A stretch of DNA of 64,000 bases from an uncultured Gammaproteobacteria bacterium (GCA_965231125.1 OZ246414.1:757440-821439); one strand, 5' to 3'; shown: positions 18,061-36,514, numbered from the stretch's first letter. The notes: generated by a model from the sequence alone, not told the origin. Translations and numbers: made by a program.

Positions 18061-18135
18061 TTAGTCCACGAAGTGGTCGCAGCACGCGGAGTATTCGGCT
18101 TCGGCACAAGGTGCGGAAGGCGTAGAATACGAGCG
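18061..18135. repeat. 75-nt intergenic palindromic repeat family A, full copy
   Basis: ttagtccacgaagtggtcgcagcacgcggagtattcggcttcggcacaaggtgcggaaggcgtagaatacgagcg is near-identical to 36440-36514 (a few mismatches). It contains a GACCAC/GTGGTC hairpin and further imperfect stems. Confidence 0.8.
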
Positions 18136-18151
18136 TGCTATACTTGAATTA

Positions 18152-18517
18152 ATGACCGTCGAGGAAGCGTTTACCAAAAGACTTCACAACGTTCCGGTAA
18201 CTACTAGTGGCATAGTTATAAAAATTCTGGCTGATGACAACGGTGAAACCCCTCACCAACGGTTTATTATTGAGCTGCACCGCGGCCATACGCTGTTAGT
18301 CGCGCACAATCTTCTCCGGGCTTACCGGGTGCCCGTGAAACTCGGCGATAAAGTCGAAATTCACGGCACTTACGTTTGGAATAAATACGGTGGCATTGTT
18401 CACAACACCCATCATTACGGCGGCGAGTGCGTGGGCGGCACATGCGACCCTCACGAAGACGGCTACATAAATTTCTTTGGATTAAAAAAACCCAACGTAG
18501 AAAAAATTGCCTCTTAA
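18152..18517 (+). CDS. DUF3465-family protein
   Basis: 121 aa. HQRFIIEL, LLVAHN and GGIVHNTHHYGG match the conserved blocks of DUF3465. Confidence 0.55.
   Translation: MTVEEAFTKRLHNVPVTTSGIVIKILADDNGETPHQRFIIELHRGHTLLVAHNLLRAYRVPVKLGDKVEIHGTYVWNKYGGIVHNTHHYGGECVGGTCDPHEDGYINFFGLKKPNVEKIAS
18439..18489. repeat. 51-bp direct repeat, copy 1 (inside the 3' end of the DUF3465 CDS)
   Basis: cacatgcgaccctcacgaagacggctacataaatttctttggattaaaaaa recurs exactly at 20284-20334. Confidence 0.85.
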
Positions 18518-18652
18518 AAGTGAGAGCCCCGATTTTAGGTTAAACCGAGGGCTCGATCACTCTCTTTCTTGCTATAGTAGTTTGTTTTGAGTTCTCTTCC
18601 CTTCTGCCTGGTTAGAGAGACGGATCCAGTACTGGTGATTCTTGTTACATTT

Positions 18653-19216
18653 CTAGCAGCTCCAAACTCCCTCCCAGCTGCTGCCTCCCCCGTGACACTC
18701 ACATTTGCAGAGGGTGAGACGCTCGACCAAAGCCTTGCCTCGTGCCGTTGTTACCAGGTCGAAGAAGGGTCTGTCTATCCAGGACAGTACTATCAGCAAA
18801 CACTCTCGACAAGCGAGACTATCCTCCCAACCGAAACGACCACTTCTTCTGGCCTCGGTGTGACGGGCCTCTTTATGGAAGGATAAGACCCAGTCAAAGA
18901 TCGCTAGGTCGTATTCGCGCACCACTTCTCCGAAGCACTTCGGGCAAAAGCTGACCTCTTCTCCACTACTAAGTTCGACGGTCTCAATTTCACAGAGACC
19001 TGGATGGCTGGCTTTCTCCAGGACCCACTGATAATCATCAGGAAACTCCTCCTTACTGATAACCAGAAGGCAGGCGCTGCAGACGCGAACTTGATCGCCA
19101 AGAAAGAGACACTTCGTCGGGGCACCTCCAGAACAATCTTTGGCTATCTGTACGTTGCACCAGTCCCCACCTTTCGCAAGCTTAACTACTTCGTCCAAAG
19201 TATCTTCCTTCCTCAA
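18653..19216 (-). CDS. cysteine-rich hypothetical protein (multiple CxxC pairs), paralog 1
   Basis: 187 aa. DWC..IAK.C, GDQVRVCSACL, FCPKCFGE, ACRECLL and LVTTARGKALVE are shared with the adjacent paralog. Confidence 0.45.
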   Translation of the reverse strand: MRKEDTLDEVVKLAKGGDWCNVQIAKDCSGGAPTKCLFLGDQVRVCSACLLVISKEEFPDDYQWVLEKASHPGLCEIETVELSSGEEVSFCPKCFGEVVREYDLAIFDWVLSFHKEARHTEARRSGRFGWEDSLACRECLLIVLSWIDRPFFDLVTTARGKALVERLTLCKCECHGGGSSWEGVWSC

Positions 19217-19817
19217 AACTCTCTACCAACGCTTTACCGCGGACTGTTGTCACCAGACTGAAGAAAGTCGGATCTACTTTCCACAAAGCCAACAGTAGGC
19301 AGTCTCGGCAAGCCCGAAGAGACAGTTCTGTATCATCCAGACCACCCTTTGGCTCGGTGTGATGGTTCTCGTCGTGATACGACAAGACCCAATCAAGAGC
19401 GGCCGGATCTTGGCTTAGAAGTACCTTACGTAGGCACCCCGGACAGAAGGTTACTTCTTCGTTGCCAACGTCCGCTGTAACTCTCTTACAAGAGCCTTCA
19501 TGACTAGTTCCCTTTAAGGTCCATTCCTCATCATCGTTAAGATCTTGAAGACAAGGGTCGCAGATTCGCACTTGCCCGTCGAGAAGAATGCACGGTGCAG
19601 GTATACCAACCTTCCCAGGACAATACTTAGCTATTTTTAAGGTGCACCAATCTGAACCTCCTTCGAACTCAACCTTTTCTCCCATGGATCTCCTCCTAGG
19701 CCAATTTTGGCCAAAAAAATACCCCCAAGATGGGGGTCGCAGAACCGAGTATTCACCTGTTGCTGGTGGTCTCATTCTGAGTTTTAATTCTAACACAAGC
19801 AAAGGAGGCTTTGTCAA
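19182..19817 (-). CDS. cysteine-rich hypothetical protein, paralog 2 of 18653-19216
   Basis: 211 aa. DWC.LKIAKYC, DGQVRICDPCL, FCPGCLRKV, ACRDCLL and LVTTVRGKALVE align with paralog 1 along the whole length. Confidence 0.45.
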   Translation of the reverse strand: MTKPPLLVLELKLRMRPPATGEYSVLRPPSWGYFFGQNWPRRRSMGEKVEFEGGSDWCTLKIAKYCPGKVGIPAPCILLDGQVRICDPCLQDLNDDEEWTLKGTSHEGSCKRVTADVGNEEVTFCPGCLRKVLLSQDPAALDWVLSYHDENHHTEPKGGLDDTELSLRACRDCLLLALWKVDPTFFSLVTTVRGKALVESFEEGRYFGRSS

Positions 19818-19919
19818 GACAAACTTTGAAAAAGAAAGCCCCGAAACGAAAAGAGCTTGAGTAATAATTTATTTGAGTAATTTAACCTTGGGTACAGCGA
19901 TTAATTGCAATACCCAAGG

Positions 19920-20225
19920 TTACCTAGCCACTCCCTTTATCAGTAATAAAGGAAAGGCAACAGCTGCAAGAAAACACACTAGTGCGATTGAAACCTCGAT
20001 CACCCTATTTTCCCATTCATCAAAGTTTAGAATGTCTCTGGCGAGTCTTCCCCACCACCAGAAAAAGGCCCCTGTTAAACCAACCCAGAAAATTAAGAAA
20101 GCTAGCCCCAACGGCACTGGATAAACCACCAACAACCGAAGGAGCAACCCCGTAACCAGTATGACCAGGAGAAGACCAACCCCAGCTAGTAAGACCTTCA
20201 AAGGTCCCGTATTGAAGAAAATCAT
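19920..20225 (-). CDS. small membrane protein (hypothetical)
   Basis: 101 aa with three hydrophobic helices and W-rich loops. Confidence 0.3.
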   Translation of the reverse strand: MIFFNTGPLKVLLAGVGLLLVILVTGLLLRLLVVYPVPLGLAFLIFWVGLTGAFFWWWGRLARDILNFDEWENRVIEVSIALVCFLAAVAFPLLLIKGVAR

Positions 20226-20283
20226 CTCGCCTCCTTAAAACCGTTTCGCCTCTGACTAACTTCCAACTTACCGTTTATTTTAA

Positions 20284-20334
20284 CACATGCGACCCTCACG
20301 AAGACGGCTACATAAATTTCTTTGGATTAAAAAA
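20284..20334. repeat. 51-bp direct repeat, copy 2 (displaced original 3' end of DUF3465)
   Basis: Exact match to 18439-18489. In the DUF3465 frame it would read ...TCDPHEDGYINFFGLKKSTTA-stop. Confidence 0.85.
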
Positions 20335-20414
20335 GTCTACTACTGCCTGAAAACATTTAGAGCCCCGAGAAAAGGCGTTCCTCGAGGCTCTTTTACTAAC
20401 CTACTTTCACCTGG

Positions 20415-20657
20415 TCAAGGTATTAGCCAGACCAATATTGCTGGTATCACGACTAACAACCCGAGAGAGTAGATCAGAAACCCGGTGCCTTTCATGGCAT
20501 TACTAATCCCAACAGTCGGTACATACCCCGACGCAAGGAAGAATATTAGTCCAAGGACAACCACCGGGATCCCCACAGCAAGAGCTCCAACCACCTCTCT
20601 TCTATTCTTTCTTGCTAGCCTCATCGAGTTCGTCTCAAAGGCGATTTCTCGTGCCAT
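20415..20657 (-). CDS. small membrane protein (hypothetical)
   Basis: 80 aa with two TM helices. Confidence 0.3.
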   Translation of the reverse strand: MAREIAFETNSMRLARKNRREVVGALAVGIPVVVLGLIFFLASGYVPTVGISNAMKGTGFLIYSLGLLVVIPAILVWLIP

Positions 20658-20831
20658 TACACTCCTTCGGAAATTAATCTCTATCCTCTAAGCTGAGTTT
20701 AATCAATTTGGGCTTTGGTGTCAAATAAATTTCTTAGTTACCTTTTGCTGTTTTTAATTCTCCAACTGCTTGGTGAAGTAGTTGAACATCTATTTCGAAG
20801 AATGAAGCCTCGCAACAAAATGCTACGAGGC

Positions 20832-21131
20832 CTAAACGAAACGGTCCAGTGCAAGAAAAATTGTGGCGAAGACAAAAGACGCCACCAAGTACACCGTGAC
20901 TCGGGTATCTTTCTTTGTCTTCAAGATGTCGAGCAAGTAAGCACCAACTAGGAAACAAAGCAGCGCTATCCCCCAACTCGGTACTACGAGAACCCAGTAG
21001 GGAAATTTTAGTGTTTCTATCCTCCCGATTCCCCACAAAGCTACTTGTACACTGCCAAAGATCACGATCGCCCAGTGAACCACCCCCGGCCTGGATGGTT
21101 CAGATGAGGTGGGCGGTTTGGCTGCCGTCAT
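20832..21131 (-). CDS. small membrane protein (hypothetical)
   Basis: 99 aa with three TM helices. It ends 10 nt before the MBL hydrolase start. Confidence 0.35.
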   Translation of the reverse strand: MTAAKPPTSSEPSRPGVVHWAIVIFGSVQVALWGIGRIETLKFPYWVLVVPSWGIALLCFLVGAYLLDILKTKKDTRVTVYLVASFVFATIFLALDRFV

Positions 21132-21140
21132 TTCTCCCTC

Positions 21141-21818
21141 CTAACCATTTTCTTGATCCTCGATCCAGCTTCTAACCGAGTAGTTATTGAAACGCTCGTA
21201 ACGAATCGTGGTTGCCTTTTGGTGACCGGGTTGGACGATCGTTTCGTCAGGCAGTTGAAAGAGCTTTTCGGCGATGCTGCGCATCTCTGTGTCGAAATCG
21301 CCAGGCCTAGTAATTCCGACTGCTCCAGCAAAAAGCGTATCTCCGCTGAAGAGCACATTTACATCTGGGCAGAATAGGCAGATGCTGCCGGGCGTGTGCC
21401 CTGGAGTCTCCAACACCAGCAACTGCAGACCTTCAACTTCAATTAGGTCTCCCTCTTGAGGGTGAAAATCCGGCTGGCGAATCGGTTGTGTCTTGCCGAC
21501 TGCACTTGGCGACCTGTTATGAGCCTTAGTGAGAAGCGGTAGATCAGCCCGATGCAGAAGGAATGGTGCCGCGGTCTTTTCCACTATTTCATTGACACCA
21601 ATCACGTGGTCGAAATGACCATGTGTTGACACAATCCTTTTGATAACCACACCGAGATCTGCTGCTAAACTTAGTATTTTATCAGCTTGTTCGGTCCGAA
21701 AATTAAAAGGATCGATACAGATTGCCTCGCGACTCGCCCGAGAACCAATTATGTAGCAGTTGGTCATGTAACCAACTACAACCTTACCGAAAGCAAGCTC
21801 GCTGACTTCTTCGGTCAT
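21141..21818 (-). CDS. MBL-fold metallo-hydrolase (glyoxalase II-like)
   Basis: 225 aa. HxHxDH motif STHGHFDHVIG. Also ETPGHTPGSICLF and a C-terminal QPGHQ. Confidence 0.8.
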   Translation of the reverse strand: MTEEVSELAFGKVVVGYMTNCYIIGSRASREAICIDPFNFRTEQADKILSLAADLGVVIKRIVSTHGHFDHVIGVNEIVEKTAAPFLLHRADLPLLTKAHNRSPSAVGKTQPIRQPDFHPQEGDLIEVEGLQLLVLETPGHTPGSICLFCPDVNVLFSGDTLFAGAVGITRPGDFDTEMRSIAEKLFQLPDETIVQPGHQKATTIRYERFNNYSVRSWIEDQENG

Positions 21819-22003
21819 TTCTTATCTCCTTTCTCTTCCACCGGCTTGGGTTCTCTTTCAGTCTGCCGACGCGTCATGTATATGAAGTCGATCTTCGTGA
21901 AGCTCTTACACTTCGAGCAGATCACGGGATGCCCATCGCAACTACCCGTCTCGTGACAGCTGCATGTGCACATCTCTTTCCTTTTTGGCACAACCTCCTC
22001 CAT
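21815..22003 (-). CDS. small Cys-rich protein (putative metal-binding)
   Basis: 62 aa, ...CTCSCHETGSCDGHPVICSKCKSF. Overlaps the MBL hydrolase start by 4 nt. Confidence 0.3.
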   Translation of the reverse strand: MEEVVPKRKEMCTCSCHETGSCDGHPVICSKCKSFTKIDFIYMTRRQTEREPKPVEEKGDKK

Positions 22004-22028
22004 TTCTGAGAACCTTCGAAATATTATA

Positions 22029-24005
22029 TCATGCCTTCAGTTCCTCAACTGCTTGGGAAAGTAGCTGGACGTAGAGCTCGAAACCAACCAGGGCGATGTT
22101 ACCGGACTGTTGTACTCCAAGCAAATTCCCCGCGCCGCGAATTTCCAGATCTTTCTTGGCGATTTTAAAACCAGCGCCAAGTTCCTTGGCCTGCGCCATT
22201 GTTACTAGGCGTTCCAGCGCATCACCGGCCGGCACGTAACCTTTGGGGTAAAAAAGGTAGGCATAAGCTTGCTGGCTACTTCGACCTACTCGACCGCGCA
22301 ATTGATACAGATCGGCCAAACCAAACTTTTGGGCGTTCTCGATGATTATTGTGTTGACATTGGGCATGTCCAAACCAGAACCAATAATAGTAGTGCAAAC
22401 TAAAACATCCGCCGCGCAACTATAAAACTCCTCCATCACCATCTCTAGATTTTGACTTTTTACTTTTACCTTTTGACTTATCTTATCCATCTGTCCGTGA
22501 GCAAAAACCACTTTCGCCTTGGGAATCAGTTGCTGAATTTCTAAAGCCTTCCCCGCAATCCCGGCAATATTGTTGTAAACATAATAGACTTGGCCTCCCC
22601 TACTTAATTCATTCTCGATCGCCTCTTTAATTTTTTCTGGCTGATACACCTCAACAAAAGTTTTTATTGGCAGCCGTCCTGCCGGAGCCGTATTTAAAGT
22701 TGAAACGTCGCGAATTTTTGTCAGGGCCATATGAAGAGTCCGAGGGATCGGAGTCGCACTCATGCTTAAAATGTCCACTTGTTCCCGCGCTTTTTTAAGT
22801 TTTTCTTTGGCGGCTACTCCAAAACGGTGTTCCTCATCAATTATTAAAAGCCCCAGGTTTTTGAATTCGACATCGCTACTTAGTAGACGGTGAGTTCCGA
22901 CAACAATATCCGCCTTCCCCATCTTCAAATTTTTCAAAGTCTTATTTTGTTCTTCTTCATCTTTAAAGCGAGAAAGCATTTCCACTTCAACGGGAAATGC
23001 GGCTAGACGATTTTTAAAAATATGGTAGTGTTGCTCCGCTAAGATAGTTGTGGGCACAAGAACGGCTACTTGCTTACTTTCTTGAACCACTTTAAAAGCG
23101 GCTCGCACGGCAATTTCGGTTTTACCAAAACCGACGTCCCCAACCAGCAATCTATCCATCGGTTTATCAGACTCCAGGTCCTTCTTAATTTCGCCAGTCG
23201 CTCTTATCTGATCTCTCGTCTCATCAAACTCAAAACTTTCTTCAAGCTCTCTTTGCCAAGGAGTGTCCGGAGCGTGTTTTGGACGTTTCAAAGTTTCTCT
23301 TTTGGCGTAAAGAGCAAGGAGTTCCTTGGCAATGTCGACGATGGACTCTCTTACTTTTTGTTTAGTGCGTTCCCAAGCACCGGTGCCAAGATAGGAAAGG
23401 GGTGGCTTTCTGCCCGGCGTGCCGATGTATTTGGTAACCCGCTCGATTTGATCTATTGGAACATAAAGCCGGTCACCTTTTGCGTATTCCAAAATTAAAT
23501 AAGTTTTACCGGCATTTTTTTCTATCTCGCGGTACTCGACATTAATAAACTTGCCGATACCGTGATCGATATGGACAACGAAGTCCCCTTTTTCTATTTC
23601 CGAAAGGAAAAGCCTCTGTGTCTCTCCGATTTGCTTTTTGACCCATTTCGGTGCAAAAGCCGGCGTGGATTTATAAGGGATAATAAACAAACTGTTCAAG
23701 CGTTTTATTTTTTCGCCGGTTAGAGAATTGAACAAGTATATTCCTTCAATTTTATCGCCGATTAAATCGATTCTTGCGGGAACCTTGTAACGCTCCAGCC
23801 ACAGATCGACAAGCCCGCCACGGGTTGAAAATTGCCCTTGTTGGTAAGCGTTGCCAGTACCAACAGACTCATAACCAAATTCAACTAATTTTTCAGAAAG
23901 TTCGCGGGGCAAGATTTTTTGGCCTACGGAAATAGTGTATCCTCCCAAACTCGTTTTCGAGGGGTTTTGTGCGTCGGCTCTCTTGATTGTTTTTGAGCGA
24001 GCCAC
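22029..24005 (-). CDS. mfd: transcription-repair coupling factor, short form (CarD/TRCF domain + SF2 helicase)
   Basis: 658 aa. CarD-like RNAP-interacting block [15 protein letters not shown]...[19 protein letters not shown]. Helicase motif [17 protein letters not shown]. Motif [12 protein letters not shown]. Motif [11 protein letters not shown]. It lacks the long UvrB-like N-terminus of canonical Mfd. Confidence 0.75.
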
Positions 24006-24320
24006 TTGCCTTATAGTACACTATCAAGTAAAATTCGACAAAAGAAAGGAGGATAAACTTGGAGAGACGTTATGTCGCGGCTGCTGTTGCAATTCCTTTC
24101 ATCATAGTAGCGTTGTTTTGTTTTTCCATGGTAGGACAACTCACCTACGACATTCAATACCATGTTGTCACCAAATACGATACCCGTTATCTACTCGGAA
24201 TCTTTTCCTTTCTAGGGGTTGTATCGTTTTTAGTGACAATTGAAACCTTGCACATAGCCTTCACGGGAAGAGGGTGGGTTTCGAGGAAAATAATAGGGTG
24301 ACTAATCGGGCCACTGTAAG

Positions 24321-24890
24321 TTAATTCTTCGGTGGCTCTTCTTTTAGCCAGTCTGCGATTAAATCAACTGCTTTTTGAAGGGCCTGCCGCAGTTTTTCTT
24401 TTTCGCCACCGGAAAACTTTTGCAAAACCCAAGCATCTAGTTCCTGCCTGCCGGCAGGAAGGTCCAAATTGCCGTGGACTTCTGGGTCTGGCCGACCGAC
24501 GCCAACCCGAACGCGGTTGAACCCATCGGTTTTTAAAGAATCCATGATGGATTCCACTCCTCGGTGACCGGCAGCACCGCGGGCAAACTGCTTCTTTATT
24601 TCACCAAAAGCAAGATCCACATCATCGTGCACCACTAAAACATTTTCCGGTTTTATTTTGTAAAAGCGGACAATATTGGCCACTGGCCCACCAGAACGGT
24701 TCATAAAAGTCTGCGGCTTGAGCAAAAGGCGTTCCTTATCCAAATAATATAAAATTGCACCCAGCTTTTTGTTTACGTGAGGCGACGCAACATACTTCCT
24801 GATAATTTCATCAATCACCATGAAACCAACATTATGCCGGCTCTGCGCGTACCGCTCACCCGGATTTCCCAATCCAACTACAATCTTCAT
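24321..24890 (-). CDS. pth: peptidyl-tRNA hydrolase
   Basis: 189 aa. MKIVVGLGNPGERYAQSRHNVGF and the conserved HNG/D layout. Confidence 0.9.
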   Translation of the reverse strand: MKIVVGLGNPGERYAQSRHNVGFMVIDEIIRKYVASPHVNKKLGAILYYLDKERLLLKPQTFMNRSGGPVANIVRFYKIKPENVLVVHDDVDLAFGEIKKQFARGAAGHRGVESIMDSLKTDGFNRVRVGVGRPDPEVHGNLDLPAGRQELDAWVLQKFSGGEKEKLRQALQKAVDLIADWLKEEPPKN

Positions 24891-24939
24891 CGTAAATTTA
24901 GATTAACAGTTTAGTAAGAATCTTTGCAAGAAAGGTGAG

Positions 24940-25425
24940 TTATTTTATTATCTCCGGGATTGCTTTCGGGGAAAGACTCGCGAGAATGGCGTCTTCAAGT
25001 TTTTCCATTGCGTTTGCTTCTTCACCTTTTTCGTGATCATAACCAAGCAAGTGCATCAGGCCATGCACAACCAAAAGATTTGCCATATCATCTACAAGAG
25101 TGTTTTCTTTCGCGGCTCTATCCAAAAGCTGGGGATAAGAAATTAGAATCTCGCCCAAGTTTAAATATTTTTGGTCTGGCGGGTTTACAAAATCACGTGG
25201 TCGGGAATTGTCCAAAGTGTAGGGAAAAGCTAAAACATCGGTTGGGGCATCGATACCGCGAAACTGCATGTTCATATCCTTCATTTTCCTGTCGCCAATT
25301 ATCGAAATGCTAACTTCCACTTTGCCCTTCACTTTCATAAATTCTAAAGTTTTTATGCAAGCCCGTGCCAGTTGTGCACGGCGGAGTGGATAATGAGGTT
25401 CAACGTAAACGTCTACTTTAAACAT
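24940..25425 (-). CDS. ybeY: rRNA maturation endoribonuclease YbeY
   Basis: 161 aa. Zinc motif HGLMHLLGYDH. Confidence 0.85.
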   Translation of the reverse strand: MFKVDVYVEPHYPLRRAQLARACIKTLEFMKVKGKVEVSISIIGDRKMKDMNMQFRGIDAPTDVLAFPYTLDNSRPRDFVNPPDQKYLNLGEILISYPQLLDRAAKENTLVDDMANLLVVHGLMHLLGYDHEKGEEANAMEKLEDAILASLSPKAIPEIIK

Positions 25426-25510
25426 AATTTAGAATTTAGAGTTTAGAATTAAGAATTAAATAACTTTGTGGGCAGGGGGAACTAACAACAAGCTAATCTG
25501 AAAAATAACT

Positions 25511-25720: not shown

Positions 25721-25735
25721 CCCCAGACTTTAGAT

Positions 25736-26053: not shown

Positions 26054-26071
26054 ACTAAAAAGCTAAGTCTA

Positions 26072-26163
26072 TCCAATTTTTGAGGCTTCACTGGCACAAG
26101 CGCCGATGACTATACTTATAACTTGACTTAATTCGCGCGGATTTGAAGCCGAAAAAATTGTTG
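26072..26163. repeat. 92-bp intergenic repeat family C, copy 1 (exact duplicate of 31564-31655)
   Basis: tccaatttttgaggcttcactggcacaagcgccgatgactatacttataacttgacttaattcgcgcggatttgaagccgaaaaaattgttg is identical in both copies. Each sits between a minus-strand stop and the next minus-strand start. Confidence 0.85.
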
Positions 26164-26169
26164 ATAGTC

Positions 26170-27466: not shown

Positions 27467-27467
27467 A

Positions 27468-28057: not shown

Positions 28058-28468
28058 TTAACGATTCAACCATCGAGCGCGAGCTTTACCACGCCACGTT
28101 AGCGGTGGAACATGTTTTAGCACAGCGTTTAATTTTTCCTCAAATTCCCTCGCATTTTCCATCTCAGCTAGCTTCTGCAAACCAACCTCAACACCCCTTT
28201 TGTACGCAAGTTGATGCTTCATCGAGTTAATTGTTGTCTTACTTACTTTTAAGATATCTCTAATATCGCTTGAGCTAAAACCCCGCTTTAACATCCACAT
28301 TAAAAATAGTCTTTTGGAAAGCATTAATTTTTCTTCGGGGGTTAAGAAATCCGTGAGGAAAATCTTTATTTCTTCCTCATTATCTAACTCAGCAACTAAA
28401 GAGGTGAAAAAATCGACTAACTGTCTGTGGACATCTTTCTCAACTGGAATCCTGGAAACTCTCGGCAT
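28058..28468 (-). CDS. TrpR-related YerC/YecD-like DNA-binding protein
   Basis: 136 aa with a central helix-turn-helix-like segment (...LMLSKRLFLMWMLKRGFSSSDIRDILKVSKTTINSMKHQL...). Size and pattern are consistent with the TrpR-like family common in small-genome bacteria. Confidence 0.4.
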   Translation of the reverse strand: MPRVSRIPVEKDVHRQLVDFFTSLVAELDNEEEIKIFLTDFLTPEEKLMLSKRLFLMWMLKRGFSSSDIRDILKVSKTTINSMKHQLAYKRGVEVGLQKLAEMENAREFEEKLNAVLKHVPPLTWRGKARARWLNR

Positions 28469-28530
28469 TAGTCCAGTATACTGGTATATTGGACTCCTGT
28501 CAATTTAAATATTTTATAAATCAGTGCGCC

Positions 28531-29796
28531 CTAATCCAAAATGGTGGAAATTTTAATAAGTTTTGCAGAATTCTCGGAGCGTTTTTTTACTTCGACAGAA
28601 TCTTCTTTAATAGTCTTCTCGCTTACTACCCAACGCTCGGGAATTCCGATAAGGTCCGCATCAGCAAGTTTCACTCCAGCCGATTCTTCTCGGTCGTCGT
28701 AAAGTACTTCGACGCCTTTTTTACTCAGTTTTTCAAAAATTTCATCCGCTTTTATACGAGCCTCCCCATCACCTAAGTTAATTAAATGAATTTCGTAAGG
28801 AGCAACCGACTGCGGCCAGATTATACCTGCCTCGTCGCTACTAACTTCGACAATTGCCGCCATTGAGCGAGTGATACCAATTCCGTAACTTCCTAAAAAC
28901 ACTGGTTTTTCTTTACCGTCTTTATTAGTGAATTTGAAACCCATCTGCTTGCTCATCGAATCCCCAAAACGGAAAATGTTACCAACCTCAATTGCGCGGC
29001 CCTCGTAGACAATGTGGTCGTGTCCAGAACCAGCACATTTTGGGCATTTGTCTCCAGCCGCAACAGTCGCAATCTCTTTATTTTGAGCAAAGCCACAACC
29101 TTTACCTTTGCAATAAAAAATCGTGTCTTCGCCACCTTCCGCAAGCACCTGAAACTCATGGGTGTGCTCTTTGGTAAAAACTCCTCCGGCCGCTTCAGTG
29201 TAGATTGTCGGCAGCCCCAGTCTGTCAAAGATTTTTTTATACGCTTTGGCCACCGTCTCGTAATACTCATCCAGTTCTTCTTTGCTTTTGGTGAATGAGT
29301 AAAGATCTTTCATTAAAAATTCTCGGCCCCGGATTAACCCACTTCTCGGCCTTGGCTCGTCTCGAAACTTTGTTTGGATTTGGTAAAGGTACGTTGGTAA
29401 ATCTTTGTAGGAGGAGACTCTTTCGCGAGCCAAAGCAATCATCGCCTCTTCGTGAGTAAAACCAAGACCAATTTCTTTTTCGGACGAGTCTTTTAGCTGG
29501 TACATGACTCCTTTCAATTTTTCCCAACGCCCAGTTTCTTCCCAAAGCTCGTGCGGCTGCAGAACACTCATGTAAACTTCTTGTCCGCCAACAGAGTTCA
29601 TTCCGTCCCGCACAACCCTCTTTATCTTTTCGATAACTCGGACCCCGAGCGGAAGAATTTCATAGACCCCGGCCATACGTTTATTGATAAAACCAGCCTT
29701 GGCTAAAAATTTTGCGTTTTTTGATGTTTCTTCAGAAGGAAAACTGCGGACGGTTTTTCCAAAAAGTTTGCTGTAGCGGATCTGTGAGTCTTGCAT
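28531..29796 (-). CDS. proS: prolyl-tRNA synthetase (short form without large editing insertion)
   Basis: 421 aa. Class II motif 2 FRDEPRPRSGLIRGREFLMKD. Motif 3 region GSYGIGITR. The zinc-binding CxxC pair is found in archaeal/eukaryotic-like ProRS. Confidence 0.9.
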   Translation of the reverse strand: MQDSQIRYSKLFGKTVRSFPSEETSKNAKFLAKAGFINKRMAGVYEILPLGVRVIEKIKRVVRDGMNSVGGQEVYMSVLQPHELWEETGRWEKLKGVMYQLKDSSEKEIGLGFTHEEAMIALARERVSSYKDLPTYLYQIQTKFRDEPRPRSGLIRGREFLMKDLYSFTKSKEELDEYYETVAKAYKKIFDRLGLPTIYTEAAGGVFTKEHTHEFQVLAEGGEDTIFYCKGKGCGFAQNKEIATVAAGDKCPKCAGSGHDHIVYEGRAIEVGNIFRFGDSMSKQMGFKFTNKDGKEKPVFLGSYGIGITRSMAAIVEVSSDEAGIIWPQSVAPYEIHLINLGDGEARIKADEIFEKLSKKGVEVLYDDREESAGVKLADADLIGIPERWVVSEKTIKEDSVEVKKRSENSAKLIKISTILD

Positions 29797-29849
29797 CTAT
29801 AACATTTAACCGCAAGGCCAGCGAAAAAGCAAGCAACTAAAAATGAGGC

Positions 29850-30983
29850 TTAAAAATAGTTGTGGATGTTAATAATGTCATTAAAGGCTACCAAAATAAA
29901 AAGAACAATTAGAAGAATAAAAAAGGCTCCGTGAATTACCCGTTCCAGCCTCGGGTTAATTTTTTTTCCAAACAAGGCTTCAGCCAGTATAAAATAAAAT
30001 CGGCCGCCGTCCAAAGCCGGAATCGGCAGTATATTTATAAACGACAGAACCAAACTGATTAGAGCCACAAGACTAATGATAGTGAAAGTTGCCGCCAGGC
30101 CGCCCAAACCAAGGAATTTGGCAAGTAGTGTAACAATCGCTATTGGGCCGGCGACATTCTTTGCTATAGGCGCAGCGGACTTTTCTTGGACCGATTTCCC
30201 AACCAAGCCGGAAATACCCACTATCTGAAATTGCAATGTATTGGCGGCCTGCATAAAACCGGCGAAGGCTTTCTCTGCGGGTCTGTCGAAACTTACCTGG
30301 GTAAAATCTCCGGCAAGAGCAACTCCGATGGCGCCCTGCCCCTTAGGCGGGCTAATTCGAGGAATAAGTTTTACGGCTCGTGTATTATTTTCCTTGATAT
30401 TTTGTAAGTCTAAGCTGACTTCTTCGCCAAGATGTTTTGAGATTAAATCTTTAAGAGCTACGGAATTTTCAATTGCTACGCCATCAAGAGATAAAATCTT
30501 GTCACCTTGCTTGACCCCGGCAAAATAGGCCGGGGAATCCTTATCGACATCGGCCACAAAAGTGTAATTTTGCTCTTCTCCGAATAGATAATGAATTTTA
30601 ATATCTGGTTGCTGCGTCGTTAATTTAAAACCATTAAATCCTAAAAGAATATAAAAAAGAAAAACAGCAAAAAGAAAATTAATTACAACGCCAGAGACAA
30701 CAACTATCAACCGAATCCACGGCGATTTTTTTTGAAAACTTGCTGGATCGTCACTCTCTTCTTCCTCGCCAAGAAGCCGCACAAAACCTCCGGCTGGTAT
30801 CCAGTTTATCGAGTAAACCGTCTCGCCGATTTTTTTACCCCAGGCCTTGGGCGGGAACCCAAAACCAAATTCCAAAACTTTTATACCAAAGATTTTTGCG
30901 GCAGTGAAATGCCCTAATTCGTGAATGAAAACGAGAAAAAGAAGAATTAATATTCCGACAATAATCGCGACAGCAATAGCCAT
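29850..30983 (-). CDS. rseP: RseP-like site-2 protease (M50 family) with PDZ domain
   Basis: 377 aa. HELGH in the first TM (FIHELGHFTAAKIFGIKV). Central PDZ (GDKILSLDGVAIEN). C-terminal LDGG motif. Confidence 0.85.
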   Translation of the reverse strand: MAIAVAIIVGILILLFLVFIHELGHFTAAKIFGIKVLEFGFGFPPKAWGKKIGETVYSINWIPAGGFVRLLGEEEESDDPASFQKKSPWIRLIVVVSGVVINFLFAVFLFYILLGFNGFKLTTQQPDIKIHYLFGEEQNYTFVADVDKDSPAYFAGVKQGDKILSLDGVAIENSVALKDLISKHLGEEVSLDLQNIKENNTRAVKLIPRISPPKGQGAIGVALAGDFTQVSFDRPAEKAFAGFMQAANTLQFQIVGISGLVGKSVQEKSAAPIAKNVAGPIAIVTLLAKFLGLGGLAATFTIISLVALISLVLSFINILPIPALDGGRFYFILAEALFGKKINPRLERVIHGAFFILLIVLFILVAFNDIINIHNYF

Positions 30984-31537
30984 TAGATCTGACTAAGTTC
31001 CGTTTCTTTAGATTTTAAAATAGATTCAATCTCTTTACCCACCTCATCTGTAACTTTTTGGACTTGCTCGTGCAACCTGTGTTTTTCGTCTTCCGATATT
31101 TCCTTGGATTTTTCTTTTTTATCAATATCTCCCATCGCCTCGTGGCGGACCGAACGAACCGCCACTCGAGCAGTTTCCACCTTTTCGTGAACCAACCTTG
31201 TTAGCTCTTTTCGTCTTTCTTCTGTTAATGCCGGTACCGGCACGCGGATAACGCCACCTTCCTCAATTGGATTTAGACCCATCCCCGCTTCACGAATAGA
31301 TTTAACAATCGAAGCAACGTTACCAGCATCCCAAGCTTGGACAATTAAAAGTCTAGGTTCCGGGGCATTGATAGAGGCAACGTCGCGGATGGCCATGGTA
31401 GATCCATAGGCTTCCACTTTGACCTGTTCAATTAAAGAAGGAACCGCACGCCCCGTCCGAACACTAGTCAGCTCTTGCTTAAGATGCTCAACCACCTTTT
31501 CCATTTTTTGCTTTGTGTCGGAAATTAATTGTTCCAT
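30983..31537 (-). CDS. frr: ribosome recycling factor
   Basis: 184 aa, typical RRF sequence (...VRTGRAVPSLIEQVKVEAYGSTMAIRDVASI...). Confidence 0.9.
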   Translation of the reverse strand: MEQLISDTKQKMEKVVEHLKQELTSVRTGRAVPSLIEQVKVEAYGSTMAIRDVASINAPEPRLLIVQAWDAGNVASIVKSIREAGMGLNPIEEGGVIRVPVPALTEERRKELTRLVHEKVETARVAVRSVRHEAMGDIDKKEKSKEISEDEKHRLHEQVQKVTDEVGKEIESILKSKETELSQI

Positions 31538-31563
31538 TATTAAGTAAGAGCCTGTCCAATTTT

Positions 31564-31655
31564 TGAGGCTTCACTGGCACAAGCGCCGATGACTATACTT
31601 ATAACTTGACTTAATTCGCGCGGATTTGAAGCCGAAAAAATTGTTGGCAGGCGAC
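31564..31655. repeat. 92-bp intergenic repeat family C, copy 2
   Basis: Exact match to 26072-26163. Lies between the tsf stop and the frr start. Confidence 0.85.
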
Positions 31656-31664
31656 TACTTCTAA

Positions 31665-32123
31665 TCACTCTCCAAGTGAAAATCTAGCAATTCTCTTAAT
31701 CTGAACATTTTCTCCAGTTTTCGTAATCACCTCGTCAACCAAATTTTTCACTGTCTTGCCAGGATCGCGAATGTATTCTTGCTTTAAAAGTTCTTCTTCG
31801 GTTGCGGGGTTCATTGCCGCCACCTGCATTGAGAGTTCTCTCGCCAGATTTTTGAATTCCTCGGTCTTGGCGACAAAATCCGTCTCGCAAGCTAAATATA
31901 CCATTGAACCCACTTTTCCGCCAGTGTGGACATAAGTTTCAATAACCCCCTGGGCTGTCTGACGCTCGGCCTTTTTAGCCACAATTTCGGCACCACGCGA
32001 TTTTATAATTTCTTTTGCCTTTTCAAAATTTCCCTCTGCCTCCATCAAGGCACGGCGGGCGTCCATCACACCTGCGCCAGTTTCGTCTCGTAGTTTTTTA
32101 ACTTGTTCGGCTGATATATCCAT
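31665..32123 (-). CDS. tsf: elongation factor Ts (short form)
   Basis: 152 aa. N-terminal UBA-like MDISAEQVKKLRDETGAGVMDARRALMEAEGNFEKA. Dimerisation core LACETDFVAKTEEF. Confidence 0.8.
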   Translation of the reverse strand: MDISAEQVKKLRDETGAGVMDARRALMEAEGNFEKAKEIIKSRGAEIVAKKAERQTAQGVIETYVHTGGKVGSMVYLACETDFVAKTEEFKNLARELSMQVAAMNPATEEELLKQEYIRDPGKTVKNLVDEVITKTGENVQIKRIARFSLGE

Positions 32124-32125
32124 AA

Positions 32126-32893
32126 TTATGAAGTTTCAACTGCCTGCCTCTTGGCTTCTTTCGCCTCTGCCCTCTCCTTCTCTTTTGTATCTTTATCTAA
32201 TTTTTTCTCAAAAATTCTGTGGCCTTCTTCGATCGCATCAGCAACCGCCTTAACAATTATAGAAATGGATTTTATAGCGTCGTCATTGGCCGGAATTGGG
32301 TAAGTTACTTTGGTTGGATCGGCATTTGTATCCACGATTGCGGCGACAGGAACTCCCATTTTTGAGGCTTCTCGCACGGCGTTGTCTTCCTTTCTAGAAT
32401 CCACAACAAACAAAGCATCCGGCAACTTTTCTAAACTGCGCACCCCGCCAATAAATTCTTTAAGTTTGGCAATTTCCTTTTGGATCAAAAGTTGTTCTTT
32501 TTTTGTTAGGCCCAAGCTTTGCGCCTCTTTTAACTCTTCTTCAAGTTTTGGAAGTTTTTGAATAGTTTTTTGGACCGATTCCCAGTTGGTTAAAATCCCC
32601 CCAACCCAGCGATGGGTTAAATAAAGCGCGCCTACTCTTTCTGCTTCACCTTTGACGATTTCGGCTGCTTGTTTTTTGGTGGCAACAAAAATTACTGTCC
32701 CGCCGCGGCTGGCAATTTCTTTCAAAAATTCAGCCGCTTCTTTCAGCCGCGTCTCCGTCTGTTCCAAATCAATAATATGAATTCCCTCTTTCGAGGAAAA
32801 TATGTAGCTGCCCATTTTTGGGTTCCACCGTTTGGTTTGGTGGCCAAAATGCGCCCCTGCTTCCAAAAGATCTTTTAAAGTTGGTAACTTCAT
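32126..32893 (-). CDS. rpsB: 30S ribosomal protein S2
   Basis: 255 aa. LLEAGAHFGHQTKRWNPKM is the uS2 signature. Confidence 0.9.
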   Translation of the reverse strand: MKLPTLKDLLEAGAHFGHQTKRWNPKMGSYIFSSKEGIHIIDLEQTETRLKEAAEFLKEIASRGGTVIFVATKKQAAEIVKGEAERVGALYLTHRWVGGILTNWESVQKTIQKLPKLEEELKEAQSLGLTKKEQLLIQKEIAKLKEFIGGVRSLEKLPDALFVVDSRKEDNAVREASKMGVPVAAIVDTNADPTKVTYPIPANDDAIKSISIIVKAVADAIEEGHRIFEKKLDKDTKEKERAEAKEAKRQAVETS

Positions 32894-33077
32894 AAACTGA
32901 AAACGCCCTTTTTGACCTCCGCCTAGAATGTCGCCTGTCTTGTTAAATAAGAAACGAGGCGCAGGGTGTAAACGCTAGACGTGTGAACTAGAAATTTTAG
33001 TATATCAAGTTTTGTCAAGTAGATACAGCTTGATAAGATTGGGCAAAGTAAGAGTCGTAGAGGGGTTATCCATAAAA

Positions 33078-33452
33078 TTACAAATAACCCCTCTTTCTCA
33101 TGACTGCGATTGCCTGAGCTGTAGCAGGTGCCAGATTGAGAGTTTCCGGCTCATTAGTCCACATCAACTCAGCGAGCTCTGTCCCAAGCGTAAACTTGCC
33201 TCTAAAAGCCACCCTATAGACAATTAGCATTATCAGATACCCACTACTTGGAGCAAAGTCTCGATATATTCCTATAAGCGAAGTCCCCGTTACTTTTAGC
33301 CCCGACAATTCTTCATTTATCTCTCGAACCAAACCGTACTCTGGAGTTTCGTCCTCCTTCAACTTACCTCCAGGAAAGATCCATGTATCGTCTTTCCTAA
33401 CAAGTAAGATTTCTCCCTTACGGATAATTGCCGCACCAACGACAAGTTCCAC
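33078..33452 (-). CDS. NUDIX hydrolase
   Basis: 124 aa. Nudix box GGKLKEDETPEYGLVREINEELSG (GX5EX7REUXEEXGU). Confidence 0.75.
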   Translation of the reverse strand: MELVVGAAIIRKGEILLVRKDDTWIFPGGKLKEDETPEYGLVREINEELSGLKVTGTSLIGIYRDFAPSSGYLIMLIVYRVAFRGKFTLGTELAELMWTNEPETLNLAPATAQAIAVMRKRGYL

Positions 33453-33640
33453 AGCAGCCCTCTCCTTTCTTGGTAACTGTTACCTCCCCACCTTAGGAAG
33501 GTAAGCTGGACCCGAAAACCCACCTTAGGTAATCAGGTGCAACTGTCTTCCTACGATGCGCGGATTATAGCGCTATAGGTTCAAAAAGTCAATCCTCCAC
33601 CCCAATAGTCCAATATACCAGTATATTGGACTTAATGAGG

Positions 33641-34300
33641 TTAAATCATGTGTCGTTTTTTTAAAACTTTTAAAATTTCTTTGTGAATTTTTTCTTTGGG
33701 CCGCATAAGCCCGTTTTTACTTACACAATTTATCCTCGCCCAATGTTTGAACCCGCTAGCGAGTTTTTCGTACATCTGCCCGGATTTATCTAAAAATTCG
33801 CTGTCTTTTTCGTGAAGGTCTTGCCGGCCTCGTTTTTTTGTAAGAGCCTTCGAAGCAGAAGTCGGCACATGCAGGTAGATAACCAGATCTTCTTTGGGAA
33901 TTTTATTTATTTTATACTCAAGCTCTGTAACCCACTTTAAAAAATCCTCTTGCGCGTCTTCTGGTAGCTTCGCCGCTTGATGAGCCATGTTGGAAGTGGC
34001 GTAGCGGTTTGCCAAAATTATTTTGCCCTCGCGAAGCCACGCGTTCATTTCCCTTTTTGCACTCGCTCTGTCCAAAGCGTAAGCAAGAGAAATTAAATAA
34101 GGGCTAACGGAGTTTACTTCTCCGAACTCTCCGGCTAGATATTTTGCCACAGTCCTCGCGTGAAAACTTTCCGCGTAGCGGGGAAAATCGATTGTTTCAA
34201 CTGAGTAATTATTTTTCTCTAAGTAGTGTTTTAAGATTGAAAGCTGGGTAGTTTTCCCACTACCATCCGTGCCTTCAATAACTATTAATTTTCCTCTCAT
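33641..34300 (-). CDS. tmk: thymidylate kinase
   Basis: 219 aa. MRGKLIVIEGTDGSGKTTQ P-loop and DFPRY motif. Confidence 0.85.
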   Translation of the reverse strand: MRGKLIVIEGTDGSGKTTQLSILKHYLEKNNYSVETIDFPRYAESFHARTVAKYLAGEFGEVNSVSPYLISLAYALDRASAKREMNAWLREGKIILANRYATSNMAHQAAKLPEDAQEDFLKWVTELEYKINKIPKEDLVIYLHVPTSASKALTKKRGRQDLHEKDSEFLDKSGQMYEKLASGFKHWARINCVSKNGLMRPKEKIHKEILKVLKKRHMI

Positions 34301-34353
34301 GGGTGGATTTTACTTGAAAAATTAAGAGTATTCAAGAAGTTGGGATAACTAAG

Positions 34354-35298
34354 TTAAAACCCTCCGACGACGGTTACTTCGGCTTTTATAGAAGGGTGGG
34401 GATCGTAGTTTTCGATTTCAATATCTTCAAATTTAAAATCATCAATGCTCTTTATTTCTGGGTTGAGCTTTAGAGTTGGAAATTGCTTTGGCTCTCGTGT
34501 CAGCTGCTCTTTCACAGCGTCAAAATGATTTTCGTAAATATGGACATCACCCCAAGCCAAAATAAATTCACCAACTGCTAGGCCCGCCACTTGAGCAATC
34601 ATATGAGTAAGCAATGAATAACTGGCAATGTTAAACGGCACGCCTAAGAAAACGTCCGCGCTTCTCATGTAAAGCTCCAGCGAAAGCCGGTTCTTGTCAT
34701 CAACATTCAGGTGGAAAAACGTGTGACAAGCCGGCAGTACCACGGATTGTCCGGGAAGAGCCATCTCGTAAATATACTCTGGGTTCCAAGCCGAAACTAA
34801 AATGTGCTTTCTTTGCGGTGTCTTTTTAAGTTTTTCAATTGCCCAGGCAAGCTGGTCTATTTTTCGTCCATCGGAAGCTTTCCAAGCTCTCCAATTCACT
34901 CCGTAAACTGGCCCTAAATCACCCCATTTTTTTGCAAATTTACTGTCACTCTTTATTTTCTGGATAAATTCTTCTTGGGTCATTTCTTGAACCTCACCAT
35001 TTTCCATTTTCTTACCATAACCTTTATAAGCCCACTCGTTCCATATGTGCACGTCTCTGTCTACCAAATATTTTATGTTCGGATCACCCTTCAAAAACCA
35101 CAGGAGCTCATGGGTTATGCCTCTCATAAAAACTTTTTTGGTTGTTAGCAACGGAAAACCTTGGGAAAGATCAAAACGAATCATTCGGCCGAAGACACTT
35201 CTAATCCCAATACCGGAGTTGAATTCACGTTTAAGGTGCCCATTCTTAAGAATGTCTTTTAACAGATCTAGGTATTGTTGTTCCGGATGATCTTTCAT
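34354..35298 (-). CDS. thyA: thymidylate synthase (ThyA type)
   Basis: 314 aa. Catalytic-Cys motif LPACHTFFHLNV. Also RSADVFLGVPFNIASYSLLTHMIA and GDVHIY. Confidence 0.9.
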   Translation of the reverse strand: MKDHPEQQYLDLLKDILKNGHLKREFNSGIGIRSVFGRMIRFDLSQGFPLLTTKKVFMRGITHELLWFLKGDPNIKYLVDRDVHIWNEWAYKGYGKKMENGEVQEMTQEEFIQKIKSDSKFAKKWGDLGPVYGVNWRAWKASDGRKIDQLAWAIEKLKKTPQRKHILVSAWNPEYIYEMALPGQSVVLPACHTFFHLNVDDKNRLSLELYMRSADVFLGVPFNIASYSLLTHMIAQVAGLAVGEFILAWGDVHIYENHFDAVKEQLTREPKQFPTLKLNPEIKSIDDFKFEDIEIENYDPHPSIKAEVTVVGGF

Positions 35299-35326
35299 TT
35301 TTTACTTTTTACTTTTGCCTTTTTAC

Positions 35327-35866
35327 TTAAACCTGTTTCTCTTCCCCTTTCGTCGTCACTCGACCGCCTTGCCATTGGCCTCGATAAGCGGCGCCTTTGC
35401 CCGCAATTTCGTAGAAAATTATGTGGGCCACTCTGGCACCAAGTTCTACTTTAAAAGAGGAGCTTCCCATATTCTTCAGACCGAAAGTCAAAATTCCTTT
35501 ATATCCTGGAGCAACTTGCGTCGACAGTAACCAGACGCCACTACGCAACAGCGTAGAGCGCGGATACGGAATAGCGACTACATTTTCCGGCAAATTTATT
35601 TTCTCGACTGTCTGCATCAAGTAAAACTTTTCCGGTTTTATTGTGAACGTGGAGGAGGCTTCTGGATCATATTTGGCGACGGATTCGTGATCCACAGTAT
35701 TACGCTTTTCCAGACCGAGGAAAGTCTCACCCTTGATTTTGAAAAGTTCGCCCAGCCGAAAATCCAGCCCGGCTCCTTCTGGGTTTTCGAGATCCCGCTC
35801 ACCCAAACCCTCAACGAGTTTAACCTCTTTGATTAAATTTTTAATAGTTTCTTGGCTTAAAACCAT
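35327..35866 (-). CDS. dUTPase/dCTP-deaminase superfamily protein (dUTPase-like paralog 2)
   Basis: 179 aa. YPRSTLLRSGV (dUTPase motif 2-like), APGYKG (motif 3-like), RVAHIIF (motif 4-like), and a Gly-rich C-terminal tail. It lacks the Dcd catalytic Glu equivalent. Confidence 0.5.
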   Translation of the reverse strand: MVLSQETIKNLIKEVKLVEGLGERDLENPEGAGLDFRLGELFKIKGETFLGLEKRNTVDHESVAKYDPEASSTFTIKPEKFYLMQTVEKINLPENVVAIPYPRSTLLRSGVWLLSTQVAPGYKGILTFGLKNMGSSSFKVELGARVAHIIFYEIAGKGAAYRGQWQGGRVTTKGEEKQV

Positions 35867-35936
35867 AATTTACCTCTTCTGTCATTCTCGCGAAAGCGAG
35901 GATCTGGATTCTCAGTCAAGCCGAGAATGACAAAAT

Positions 35937-36410
35937 TTAAAGTTTACTTGCCTCGGGTTTTGTATGGTCGTATCTTGAACTGTACCCCGAAACCGATTTA
36001 TCAACTTCCTCAAAAATTATCTGGCAGATTGAAAGTCCACTTTTAAGCAAAATAGGTTTGCGCGAAAGGTTTTTCAAAGTTAGTATTGGCCGGCCGGAAT
36101 AATTTGGCGGCAAAAGATCCGCTTCAAAAATAGTTAGAACACCAAGACGAGCCAAGGATGATTTGGACACTAGCCTACCGATTAAGTTCCCAGGAAGAGT
36201 TACTTTTTCGGCGGTATTGGTGAGCAAAAACTCATCCAGCGAAAAATGGTAGTCGGAGAGATCCACCTCTTCTCCAGAATCAGGTAGAAGGGCGGTCTGC
36301 CCCAGATGCAAATCCACACTTACAAAACGGACGTTGTCCGCTTCGTACGGATCGATTTTTAATTTTCCTTCTTTTATTAAATTTTTGATGGTTTCCCCAG
36401 ATAATACCAT
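35937..36410 (-). CDS. dUTPase/dCTP-deaminase superfamily protein (dUTPase-like paralog 1)
   Basis: 157 aa. The N-terminus MVLSGETIKNLIKEGKLKIDP parallels that of Dcd. VSKSSLARLGV, PPNYSGRP and SICQIIF are dUTPase-like motifs. Confidence 0.5.
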   Translation of the reverse strand: MVLSGETIKNLIKEGKLKIDPYEADNVRFVSVDLHLGQTALLPDSGEEVDLSDYHFSLDEFLLTNTAEKVTLPGNLIGRLVSKSSLARLGVLTIFEADLLPPNYSGRPILTLKNLSRKPILLKSGLSICQIIFEEVDKSVSGYSSRYDHTKPEASKL

Positions 36411-36439
36411 GGTTAATCAGTTAATCCGCTTGCCCGACA

Positions 36440-36514
36440 TTAGACCACAAAGTGGTCGCAGCACGCGGAGTATTCGGCTTCGGCACGAAGTGCGGAAGGC
36501 ATAGAATACGAGCG
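36440..36514. repeat. 75-nt intergenic palindromic repeat family A, full copy
   Basis: Near-identical to 18061-18135. Lies between the dUTPase-like paralog start and the dcd stop. Confidence 0.8.

Follow-up and report, generated by a model that had tools for sequence, protein, structure and literature searches.

The 64,000-nucleotide (nt) window analysed here (GCA_965231125.1 OZ246414.1:757440-821439, from an assembly named for an uncultured Gammaproteobacteria bacterium) contains at least eight credible copies, five on the plus strand and three on the minus strand, of a short repeat that can fold into two unlike hairpins. Members of the family measure 40-120 nt, and we consider that they are probably non-autonomous mobile elements, the movement of which would depend on their hairpins in the manner of repetitive extragenic palindromic (REP) sequences and Rickettsia palindromic elements (RPE). 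The named closest homologues of the dCTP deaminase and cysteinyl-tRNA synthetase (CysRS) encoded in the window come mostly from Candidatus Woykebacteria, and the window derives from a Candidatus Woykebacteria genome, of a lineage within the Candidate Phyla Radiation (CPR, Patescibacteria). Full-text literature searches found no account of repeat families resembling REP, RPE or miniature inverted-repeat transposable elements (MITEs) in CPR/Patescibacteria, and a published study of group I introns in the tRNA genes of Patescibacteria is silent on them; the repeat family in Woykebacteria is apparently undescribed so far.

An initial annotation of the window had noted two near-identical 75-nt copies and two partial inverted ones, and had described them as a dispersed, intergenic family that was either REP- or MITE-like or else resembled small RNAs. 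The two full copies are present as a near-identical direct repeat (repeat family D7, 93% identity) and begin where that annotation placed them, at 18061 and 36440; they extend slightly further, to 81 nt. The core GACCAC-N3-GTGGTCGCAGCA (GACCACNNNGTGGTCGCAGCA, with at most 3 mismatches) occurs three times in the window against a mean of 0.01 in dinucleotide shuffles, none of 100 of which reached three. Beyond the window, the 24-nt pattern TTAGWCCACNNNGTGGTCGCAGCA was found at 11 loci in 7 metagenome-assembled genomes (MAGs) of the species-representative genome collection, and a slightly looser pattern in 45 metagenome contigs, so that what might have been an incidental local duplication is a family. 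The titles of those MAGs name Woykebacteria or Patescibacteria in some cases and Nanoarchaeia or Gammaproteobacteria in others; one locus from a 'Nanoarchaeia' MAG (L006) has bacterial rRNA. A phage origin was rejected, given zero matches to the looser pattern among viral contigs. Several of the loci (numbered here with the prefix L) hold 2-4 copies in 8-20 kb, and one (L062) has none.

The layout of the element is 5'-TTAG, a first hairpin (H1), CGC, a long hairpin (P2/P3) and a 3' end in GC, after which comes TAY (TAT or TAC). H1 is usually GTCCAC-GAA-GTGGTC; across copies its stem ranges from 5 to 13 bp and is always preceded by TTAG, CTAG or ATAG. The long hairpin consists of P2 (AGCAnnn paired with nnnUGCU), a conserved RRGA / GRA internal loop, and P3 (GUA/UAC followed by a variable helix), and is joined to the dissimilar H1 by CGCAG; rather than a simple palindrome it is a pair of different hairpins, without terminal inverted repeats. 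Two classes differ at the apex, which in class A is long and carries a second tandem G-A motif (UGAGC...GCGAA) and in class B is short (GGC-hairpin-GGCAUA); the two full copies first noticed are both of class B. Their predicted folds are more stable than those of shuffled sequences (z = -3.7 and -4.9). In a MAFFT alignment of 14 class A copies, pairing is kept in 94% of cells and both partners have changed in 14 of the 26 pairs; the corresponding figure is 5.6 for shuffles (0/500 reach 14) and 1-3 for slid controls. Among approximately 50 distinct copies from Woykebacteria MAGs and metagenomes, compensatory base changes are strong and extend to H1, the sequence of which is unrelated between copies found by covariance model while its pairing is preserved, as at 8672-8760 and in the 13-bp stem at 11436-11529. 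Covariance model R1 was built from the 14-copy alignment and model R2 from 49 matches. A canonical kink-turn (k-turn) at the P2/P3 junction was tried by hand and rejected: the register cannot accommodate a 3-nt bulge with G-A/A-G after it, and the loop is instead a 4x3 or 3x2 purine loop.

Among the evidence for mobility, copies occupy sites that are uninterrupted in relatives. The dCTP deaminase (dcd) genes of two related loci with the same operon order (L060 and L062, 80-81% amino acid identity) are 4-5 nt apart, constituting an empty site; the same spacer in the window and in its 99% relative L059 is 106 nt long and includes the element. The upstream dcd gene now ends at a TAG within the element, supplied, on the reverse strand, by its terminal ATAG. 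L060 has a copy of its own one intergenic gap further along the same operon. Similarly, topA is preceded by a copy in the window and in L054, and by none in L060, and two assemblies that code for an identical protein terminate at the element. The element itself can be a target: comparison of L008 with L014 reveals a clean 36-nt insertion within P3, which is a mini element composed of H1 and a P2 hairpin.

Transfer RNA genes have been struck repeatedly. They are split at the same D-loop position in four independent loci (L002, L005, the homologous spacers L006/L021/L025, and L026), where the order on the reverse strand is a -10 box, a gap of about 10 nt, the acceptor strand, the D stem, the D loop as far as ...ATA, the element, and then the 3' strand of the D stem. 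The two halves of the D stem still match across the element (GAAC opposite GTTC in L002; GAGC opposite GCTC in L005, L006 and L025). Beyond the interrupted gene a complete tRNA gene follows after 15-23 nt. In L002 the interrupted gene goes on as G-TCGGG-TTGCAAA, the anticodon arm of Cys(GCA), and then stops. These structures are best read as copies of tRNA genes struck at position 21/22 and later truncated. That they are unusual or intron-containing tRNAs was rejected, as the complete neighbours are the only tRNAs that ARAGORN and Rfam recognise and there is no 3' acceptor strand.

One copy has entered a protein. At 8118-8174, within cysS, a degenerate copy codes for LDAEGGAKRERDDGSRTI (residues 153-170; 54 nt, 18 codons) together with the host codon for Tyr171. 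At this site in L004, whose CysRS is 60% identical, the copy is more complete (E = 2.4e-5). Inserts of 17-30 amino acids of the type VLDAEGGAKRGKAGIRGE...SFG (LDAEGGAKR...) are found here in 13 of 34 CysRS orthologues; the remainder, including proteins 70-74% identical to that of the window, have an uninterrupted YExxG-TVYF. One reading frame of the element is open, and therefore a copy could persist in cysS as a peptide insert. Exact-protein look-ups for strain variants lacking a copy present in the window matched only the same genome.

Four junctions can be compared with uninterrupted sequence, and all four agree. The nested copy in L008 gives AAAT^TAC; the tRNA D loop, read on the strand of the element, gives GCTC^TAT; cysS gives GTN^TAY, the TAY there encoding the conserved tyrosine of the YF motif; and ssb in L009 gives ACTT^TAT. 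In each, TTAG...GC is the element, TAY is host sequence, and there is no target-site duplication. The conserved 'CTAT' at the end of the element is consequently a C of the element joined to TAT or TAC of the host. What follows every copy is TAT, TAC or TAA. Duplication of a TA target was rejected, being off by one extra T at each resolved junction, and the terminal sequences, TTAG-TCCAC... and ...nnnTGC, share TAG/CTA only if the host TA is counted. Thus a short specific target, retained at one end and not duplicated, as for IS200/IS605-type elements, was found at all four junctions. We propose a hairpin-dependent, single-strand mechanism because the lack of both terminal inverted repeats and target duplication, together with a short target retained at one end and hairpins near both, matches what single-strand HUH systems such as IS200/IS605 and REP/RAYT generate. 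A single-stranded nucleic-acid intermediate would fold into both hairpins, and an enzyme would read the invariant unpaired nucleotides (TTAG, CGCAG and the GA loops) much as HUH/Y1 transposases do on REP and IS200/IS605 ends. Insertion would occur directly 5' of a host TAY, without target-site duplication, after which the element, to judge from its gene context, would be co-transcribed in whichever orientation it arrived.

Table 1. Members of the hairpin element family in the window, with their covariance model scores and surroundings.
Position	Strand	Type	Model match and fold	Parts	Setting
18061-18141	+	Full copy, class B (short apex)	R1 50.7 bits; R2 68.5 bits, E = 3.6e-14	TTAG 18061-18064; H1 18064-18078; P2 18081-18087 / 18133-18139	Between dnaX (16270-17982, -) and DUF3465 gene (18152-18517, +)
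36440-36520	+	Full copy, class B	R2 61.7 bits		Between two dCTP-deaminase paralogues (35937-36410, -; 36517-37116, -); antisense to dcd operon
8672-8760	+	Full copy, class A (long apex)	R1 48.7 bits; R2 59.3 bits, E = 5e-12		cysS (-) on one side, open reading frame 8766-9098 (+) on the other; TGGTATAAT 10 nt downstream
41214-41270	-	Short variant	R1/R2 32-33 bits, E ~1e-5; predicted fold	H1 + P2, AT-rich loop replacing P3	Immediately upstream of topA (39064-41208, -)
11436-11529	+	Divergent full copy	R2 28.4 bits, E = 1e-4; predicted fold -47.5 kcal/mol		
8118-8174	-	Degenerate copy	R2 27 bits, E = 2e-4		In frame and sense within cysS
1382-1420	-	Partial copy	R2 alignment extends to 1328	5' half TTAG-H1-CGCAGCACGC intact, 3' half decayed	
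1458-1501	+	Mini copy	R2 18.8 bits, E = 0.02; predicted fold		
42459-42480	+	Possible H1 remnant, low confidence	Weak matches, E = 1.8-3.5	TTAGTGACCACTACGTGGTG	Convergent genes on both sides

All four copies listed by the initial annotation are real (Table 1), and those at 8672-8760, 11436-11529, 1458-1501 and 8118-8174 are additional. One of its two 'partial' copies, that at 1382, is indeed partial; the other, at 41214, is by both covariance models a complete short copy, of which the part at 41249-41270 escapes the core pattern because its loop is only 2 nt. Some copies have a different H1 or a reduced architecture. At 8672 the hairpin is CTAGGCA-GAAGT-TGCCTAG. The mini copy at 1458 runs TTAG, H1 (GTCGTCAC-GAA-GTGAAGAC), GC, P2 with a tetraloop, and AC, which is the layout of nested mini copies in L008 and L012. 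The divergent copy at 11436 reads ATAG, a 13-bp H1, CGCAG, P2/P3 and TAT. It lies in a 2.1-kb region (9955-12037) without a convincing open reading frame (ORF), for which the identical contig L064 also has no gene call and in which Rfam detects nothing except two chance-level microRNA matches (E = 0.2 and 0.77); such a gap is unusual in a genome that is otherwise tightly packed.

Neither the function nor the direction of the neighbouring genes is constant across copies. With the element oriented 5' to 3', the strands of the upstream and downstream ORFs are (-,-) in 18 cases, (+,+) in 12, (+,-) in 8 and (-,+) in 7, and L006 has both orientations within one rRNA operon. Eighty-seven neighbouring ORFs match 77 Pfam families, an assortment of housekeeping functions (DCD, TopA, CysRS, Obg, S6, UvrD, SSB and others). 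Some copies are internal to operons, and others occupy the 16S-23S spacer or tRNA clusters. The constant position and orientation upstream of a coherent gene set that would characterise a riboswitch or other cis-regulatory leader was not observed. GC skew is uniform across the window, where five plus and three minus copies are too few to judge any replication-strand bias. As to gene order around the dcd copy, positions 35327-37116 hold three tandem dCTP-deaminase/dUTPase-like paralogues, followed by thyA, tmk and a NUDIX gene, an order common to L059, L060 and L062. In L006, the 16S-23S spacer contains a NUDIX-like ORF (600-1007), with the 16S gene on one side and the remnant of the interrupted tRNA on the other. 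A -10-like box stands 7-13 nt before the mature tRNA 5' end at L005 6369-6620, L021 400-545, L006 1000-1030 and L002 1320-1345, which suggests that the 5' leaders of tRNA genes and remnants in these Woykebacteria loci are very short or absent.

Several observations weigh against a mobile element. The insertion rule is based on four resolved junctions. No candidate Y1/HUH partner emerged from a crude motif scan of six frames of 482 kb (the loci, rather than whole genomes), and no transposase is among the 25 of 77 neighbour families displayed. The strict motif gives 1-4 matches per representative genome, fewer than a REP or MITE burst would be expected to leave. Diverged direct repeats of 12-48 nt (p <= 0.01 against shuffles) bracket about 10 of 48 copies and reproduce the 5' end of whichever gene lies past H1, namely ssb in L009, dcd in L060, and the promoter and 5' part of a tRNA in L005 and L026. 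The proposed mechanism does not account for these duplications; possible explanations are selection, in that an insertion into an essential 5' end might survive only with a duplicate, one-sided deletions, or an insertion footprint. Finally, in 23 of 29 copies the '+' strand forms a more stable fold than the complementary strand does (p = 4e-4), and the nucleotides of the internal loops and H1 are near-invariant between genomes whose proteins share approximately 60-80% identity; functional RNAs typically show such features as purine-rich loops, a GAA triloop and tandem G-A pairs.

These last points bear directly on the idea that the repeat is a structured RNA module that serves the host in cis, either as a platform for proteins that bind G-A or k-turn-like loops or as a signal for processing or stability. 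Such a module would form part of numerous mRNAs as well as of tRNA and rRNA precursors, and would be gained and lost over time. The stability of the '+' strand and its purine-rich loops keep such a role alive as a rival, and the strong covariation, the invariance of the unpaired purines, the copies inside operons, the 16S-23S spacer and tRNA clusters, and the retention of approximately 93% of the sequence between genomes at non-orthologous sites are all consistent with it. We nevertheless think it unlikely, since 18 of the co-directional gene pairs carry the element antisense and 12 sense, and most transcripts would therefore bear its pyrimidine-rich complement. Both orientations occur in the one rRNA operon of L006, orthologous operons function without the element, and the copy in cysS is translated. 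Counts of G-U and A-C in the stems are nearly symmetric, at 32 to 22, which would tend against this role but gave no decisive guide to the strand of function. The repeats might otherwise be copies of genes for independently transcribed small RNAs or self-cleaving ribozymes, whose folds would likewise be compact and very stable, whose cores the conserved internal loops resemble, and for which linkage to repeated DNA is typical; the '+' strand even begins UUA-GUC. This seems to us highly improbable. Flank listings revealed no promoter at a fixed distance before TTAG and no terminator beyond the 3' end, H1 or P3 is wholly absent from some copies (L004:1104; 41214 and 1458 in the window), one copy lies within an ORF, and Rfam found no matching family. 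Its searches gave nothing in the window at gathering thresholds, nothing with E <= 10 at 17983-18160, and nothing on the element in L054, L017 and L021; ARAGORN found no tRNA in the window. The gene for signal recognition particle (SRP) RNA, ffs, frequently precedes dnaX, and SRP RNA was considered for the copy at 18061; it was rejected for want of a GNRA-capped domain IV or an Rfam match, and on account of an apex that varies between copies and the presence of two copies. Mixed orientation, unrelated housekeeping neighbours, the lack of conserved flanking signals and the in-frame copy in cysS together lead us not to favour the small RNA or 5' untranslated region proposed in the initial annotation.

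The 3' end of the element raises a different possibility, namely that it is a portable promoter or operator cassette in which H1 is a palindromic operator and TGCTAT an extended -10 box, directed at leaderless genes of DNA metabolism (topA, mutM, uvrD, the dnaX region, dcd). TGCTA provides two thirds of such a box (TGnTAnnnT) and the flank need supply only nnT. Of 12 copies that have a co-directional gene no more than 60 nt away, 10 continue from TGC into TAnnnT, as do 13 of the 32 others (Fisher p = 0.017); those 12 match TATAAT at 4.8 of 6 positions on average. The box is seen chiefly where a gene starts 4-15 nt downstream, as is the case at many copies. In the window, DUF3465 has its ATG 11 nt beyond the terminus TGCTATACT, ORF 8766 starts 6 nt after the copy at 8672, and topA has its first ATG 2 nt, and its second 8 nt, beyond the terminus TGCTATAGT (TATAGT); elsewhere, topA, mutM and a UvrD-like gene likewise start just after copies. 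The presence of a copy before topA in two genomes, and several neighbours that act on DNA, would also suit a cassette. Against this, a double-stranded operator does not explain compensatory changes in three helices, the sequence of H1 is wholly different between copies, many copies point away from gene starts or follow stop codons, and the neighbours as a whole form no regulon. A regulatory cassette is an improbable explanation for the family, while use of the element's end as a promoter, judged from sequence, appears plausible as a consequence of insertion.

A mobile element remains our preferred interpretation. The REP- or MITE-like part of the initial annotation stands inasmuch as the repeat is multi-copy, covarying, inserted and polymorphic between relatives; it is not, however, an inverted-repeat MITE, and with one copy in cysS it is not wholly intergenic. 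More tentatively, the family could represent an undescribed CPR class of hairpin-guided mobile elements, site-specific for N^TAY (and repeatedly for tRNA D-loop position 21/22), leaving the target unduplicated and relying on an enzyme other than a classical Y1 or RAYT transposase. Its GA loops would serve both as transposition signal and as structured RNA, it would seed extended -10 promoters for leaderless genes, and the 12-48-nt duplications would be a footprint of its insertion chemistry. The GA-loop architecture and the targeting of the tRNA D loop are the parts most likely to hold something new.

The CPR/Patescibacteria genomes are considered highly streamlined, and the element lengthens operon spacers, which measure 4-5 nt in relatives, by approximately 80 nt. 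In six copies, the reverse-strand ATAG forms the stop codon of the preceding gene, ending upstream genes that have been truncated. Stop codons, promoter-like ends, split tRNA genes, a peptide added to an aminoacyl-tRNA synthetase and broken metagenome assemblies are all effects of these copies. The covariance model can be used to annotate such repeats, which offer a marker of strain-level polymorphism in Woykebacteria. If a mobilising enzyme is found, it could define a new single-strand transposition system in as-yet-uncultured organisms.

The window contains other repeats besides the hairpin element. A 163-nt direct repeat (D3; 3033-3195 and 55949-56111, 100% identity) is intergenic and lies upstream of the minus-strand ORFs 2472-3023 and 54357-55883; it includes a hairpin (ccgagggctaaaaccctcgg) and, on the minus strand, TGTTATAAT, and looks like a duplicated promoter with a leader of approximately 150 nt. 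Another duplicated upstream region is the 98-nt direct repeat D6 (26066-26163 and 31549-31646, 98% identity), unrelated in sequence to the hairpin element, which is intergenic and upstream of minus-strand genes, the second copy preceding the gene for ribosome recycling factor. A 26-nt near-perfect palindrome, AGTCCAGTATACTGGTATATTGGACT (pair I4), occurs both at 28470-28495, directly upstream of a Trp-repressor-like gene (28058-28468, -; Pfam family taken from the gene table of L059), and at 33607-33632, between the NUDIX and thymidylate-kinase genes; it may be the operator of the Trp-repressor-like protein. The 51-nt exact direct repeat D12 comprises the 3' end of the DUF3465 ORF (18439-18489) and a second copy 1.8 kb downstream (20284-20334). 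Five large minus-strand ORFs at 44196-54293, which have common diverged repeats at their 3' ends and elsewhere (D1, D2, D4, D5), appear to be a paralogous family and probably encode surface proteins.

The element belongs among the small hairpin-forming, non-autonomous repeats, as a new family. With the REP, BIME and REPIN repeats that are linked to RAYT in Proteobacteria it has in common short intergenic hairpins in both orientations, modular or tandem units, presumed co-transcription with neighbours, and a tetranucleotide ending in TAG just 5' of a hairpin (GTAG in REP, TTAG here). A REP is an imperfect palindrome of 20-40 nt after GTAG, and its cognate RAYT gene is usually flanked by REP sequences. 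Our element differs in that its two dissimilar hairpins are joined by CGCAG and the second, which is needed in most copies, is long and has conserved GA-rich internal loops; in having copies within tRNA genes and a coding sequence; in its apparently modest copy number; and in that the scan of 482 kb revealed no RAYT gene. The Correia/NEMIS, ERIC and BOX/RUP MITEs are also intergenic, co-transcribed and folded as RNA, and their ends can make promoters (-10 and -35 boxes in Correia); these, however, have long terminal inverted repeats and duplicate a TA or longer target, and as it has neither feature the element is not a classical MITE. IS200/IS605 ends and their non-autonomous derivatives, PATEs, offer a parallel: each end has a subterminal hairpin, terminal inverted repeats and target-site duplication are both lacking, and a short target stays attached at one end. 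Our element departs from them in the unlikeness of its two hairpins and in its much smaller size; none of its copies is associated with TnpA or TnpB, and the few copies in the window reveal no clear replication-strand bias. The RPEs resemble it in behaviour, as predicted stable hairpins of approximately 100 nt in a reduced genome that enter RNA genes and, in frame, protein genes, where they are kept as peptide inserts, as seen here in cysS. They occur in another phylum, while our copies are mostly intergenic and are defined by ends and target of the form TTAG...GC 5' of TAY; with the phyla so different, homology to the sequences of RPE-1 to RPE-8 is improbable. By analogy, then, the element would work most like REP/REPIN and IS200/IS605-derived elements, and its behaviour in the genome would be most like that of the Rickettsia RPEs.

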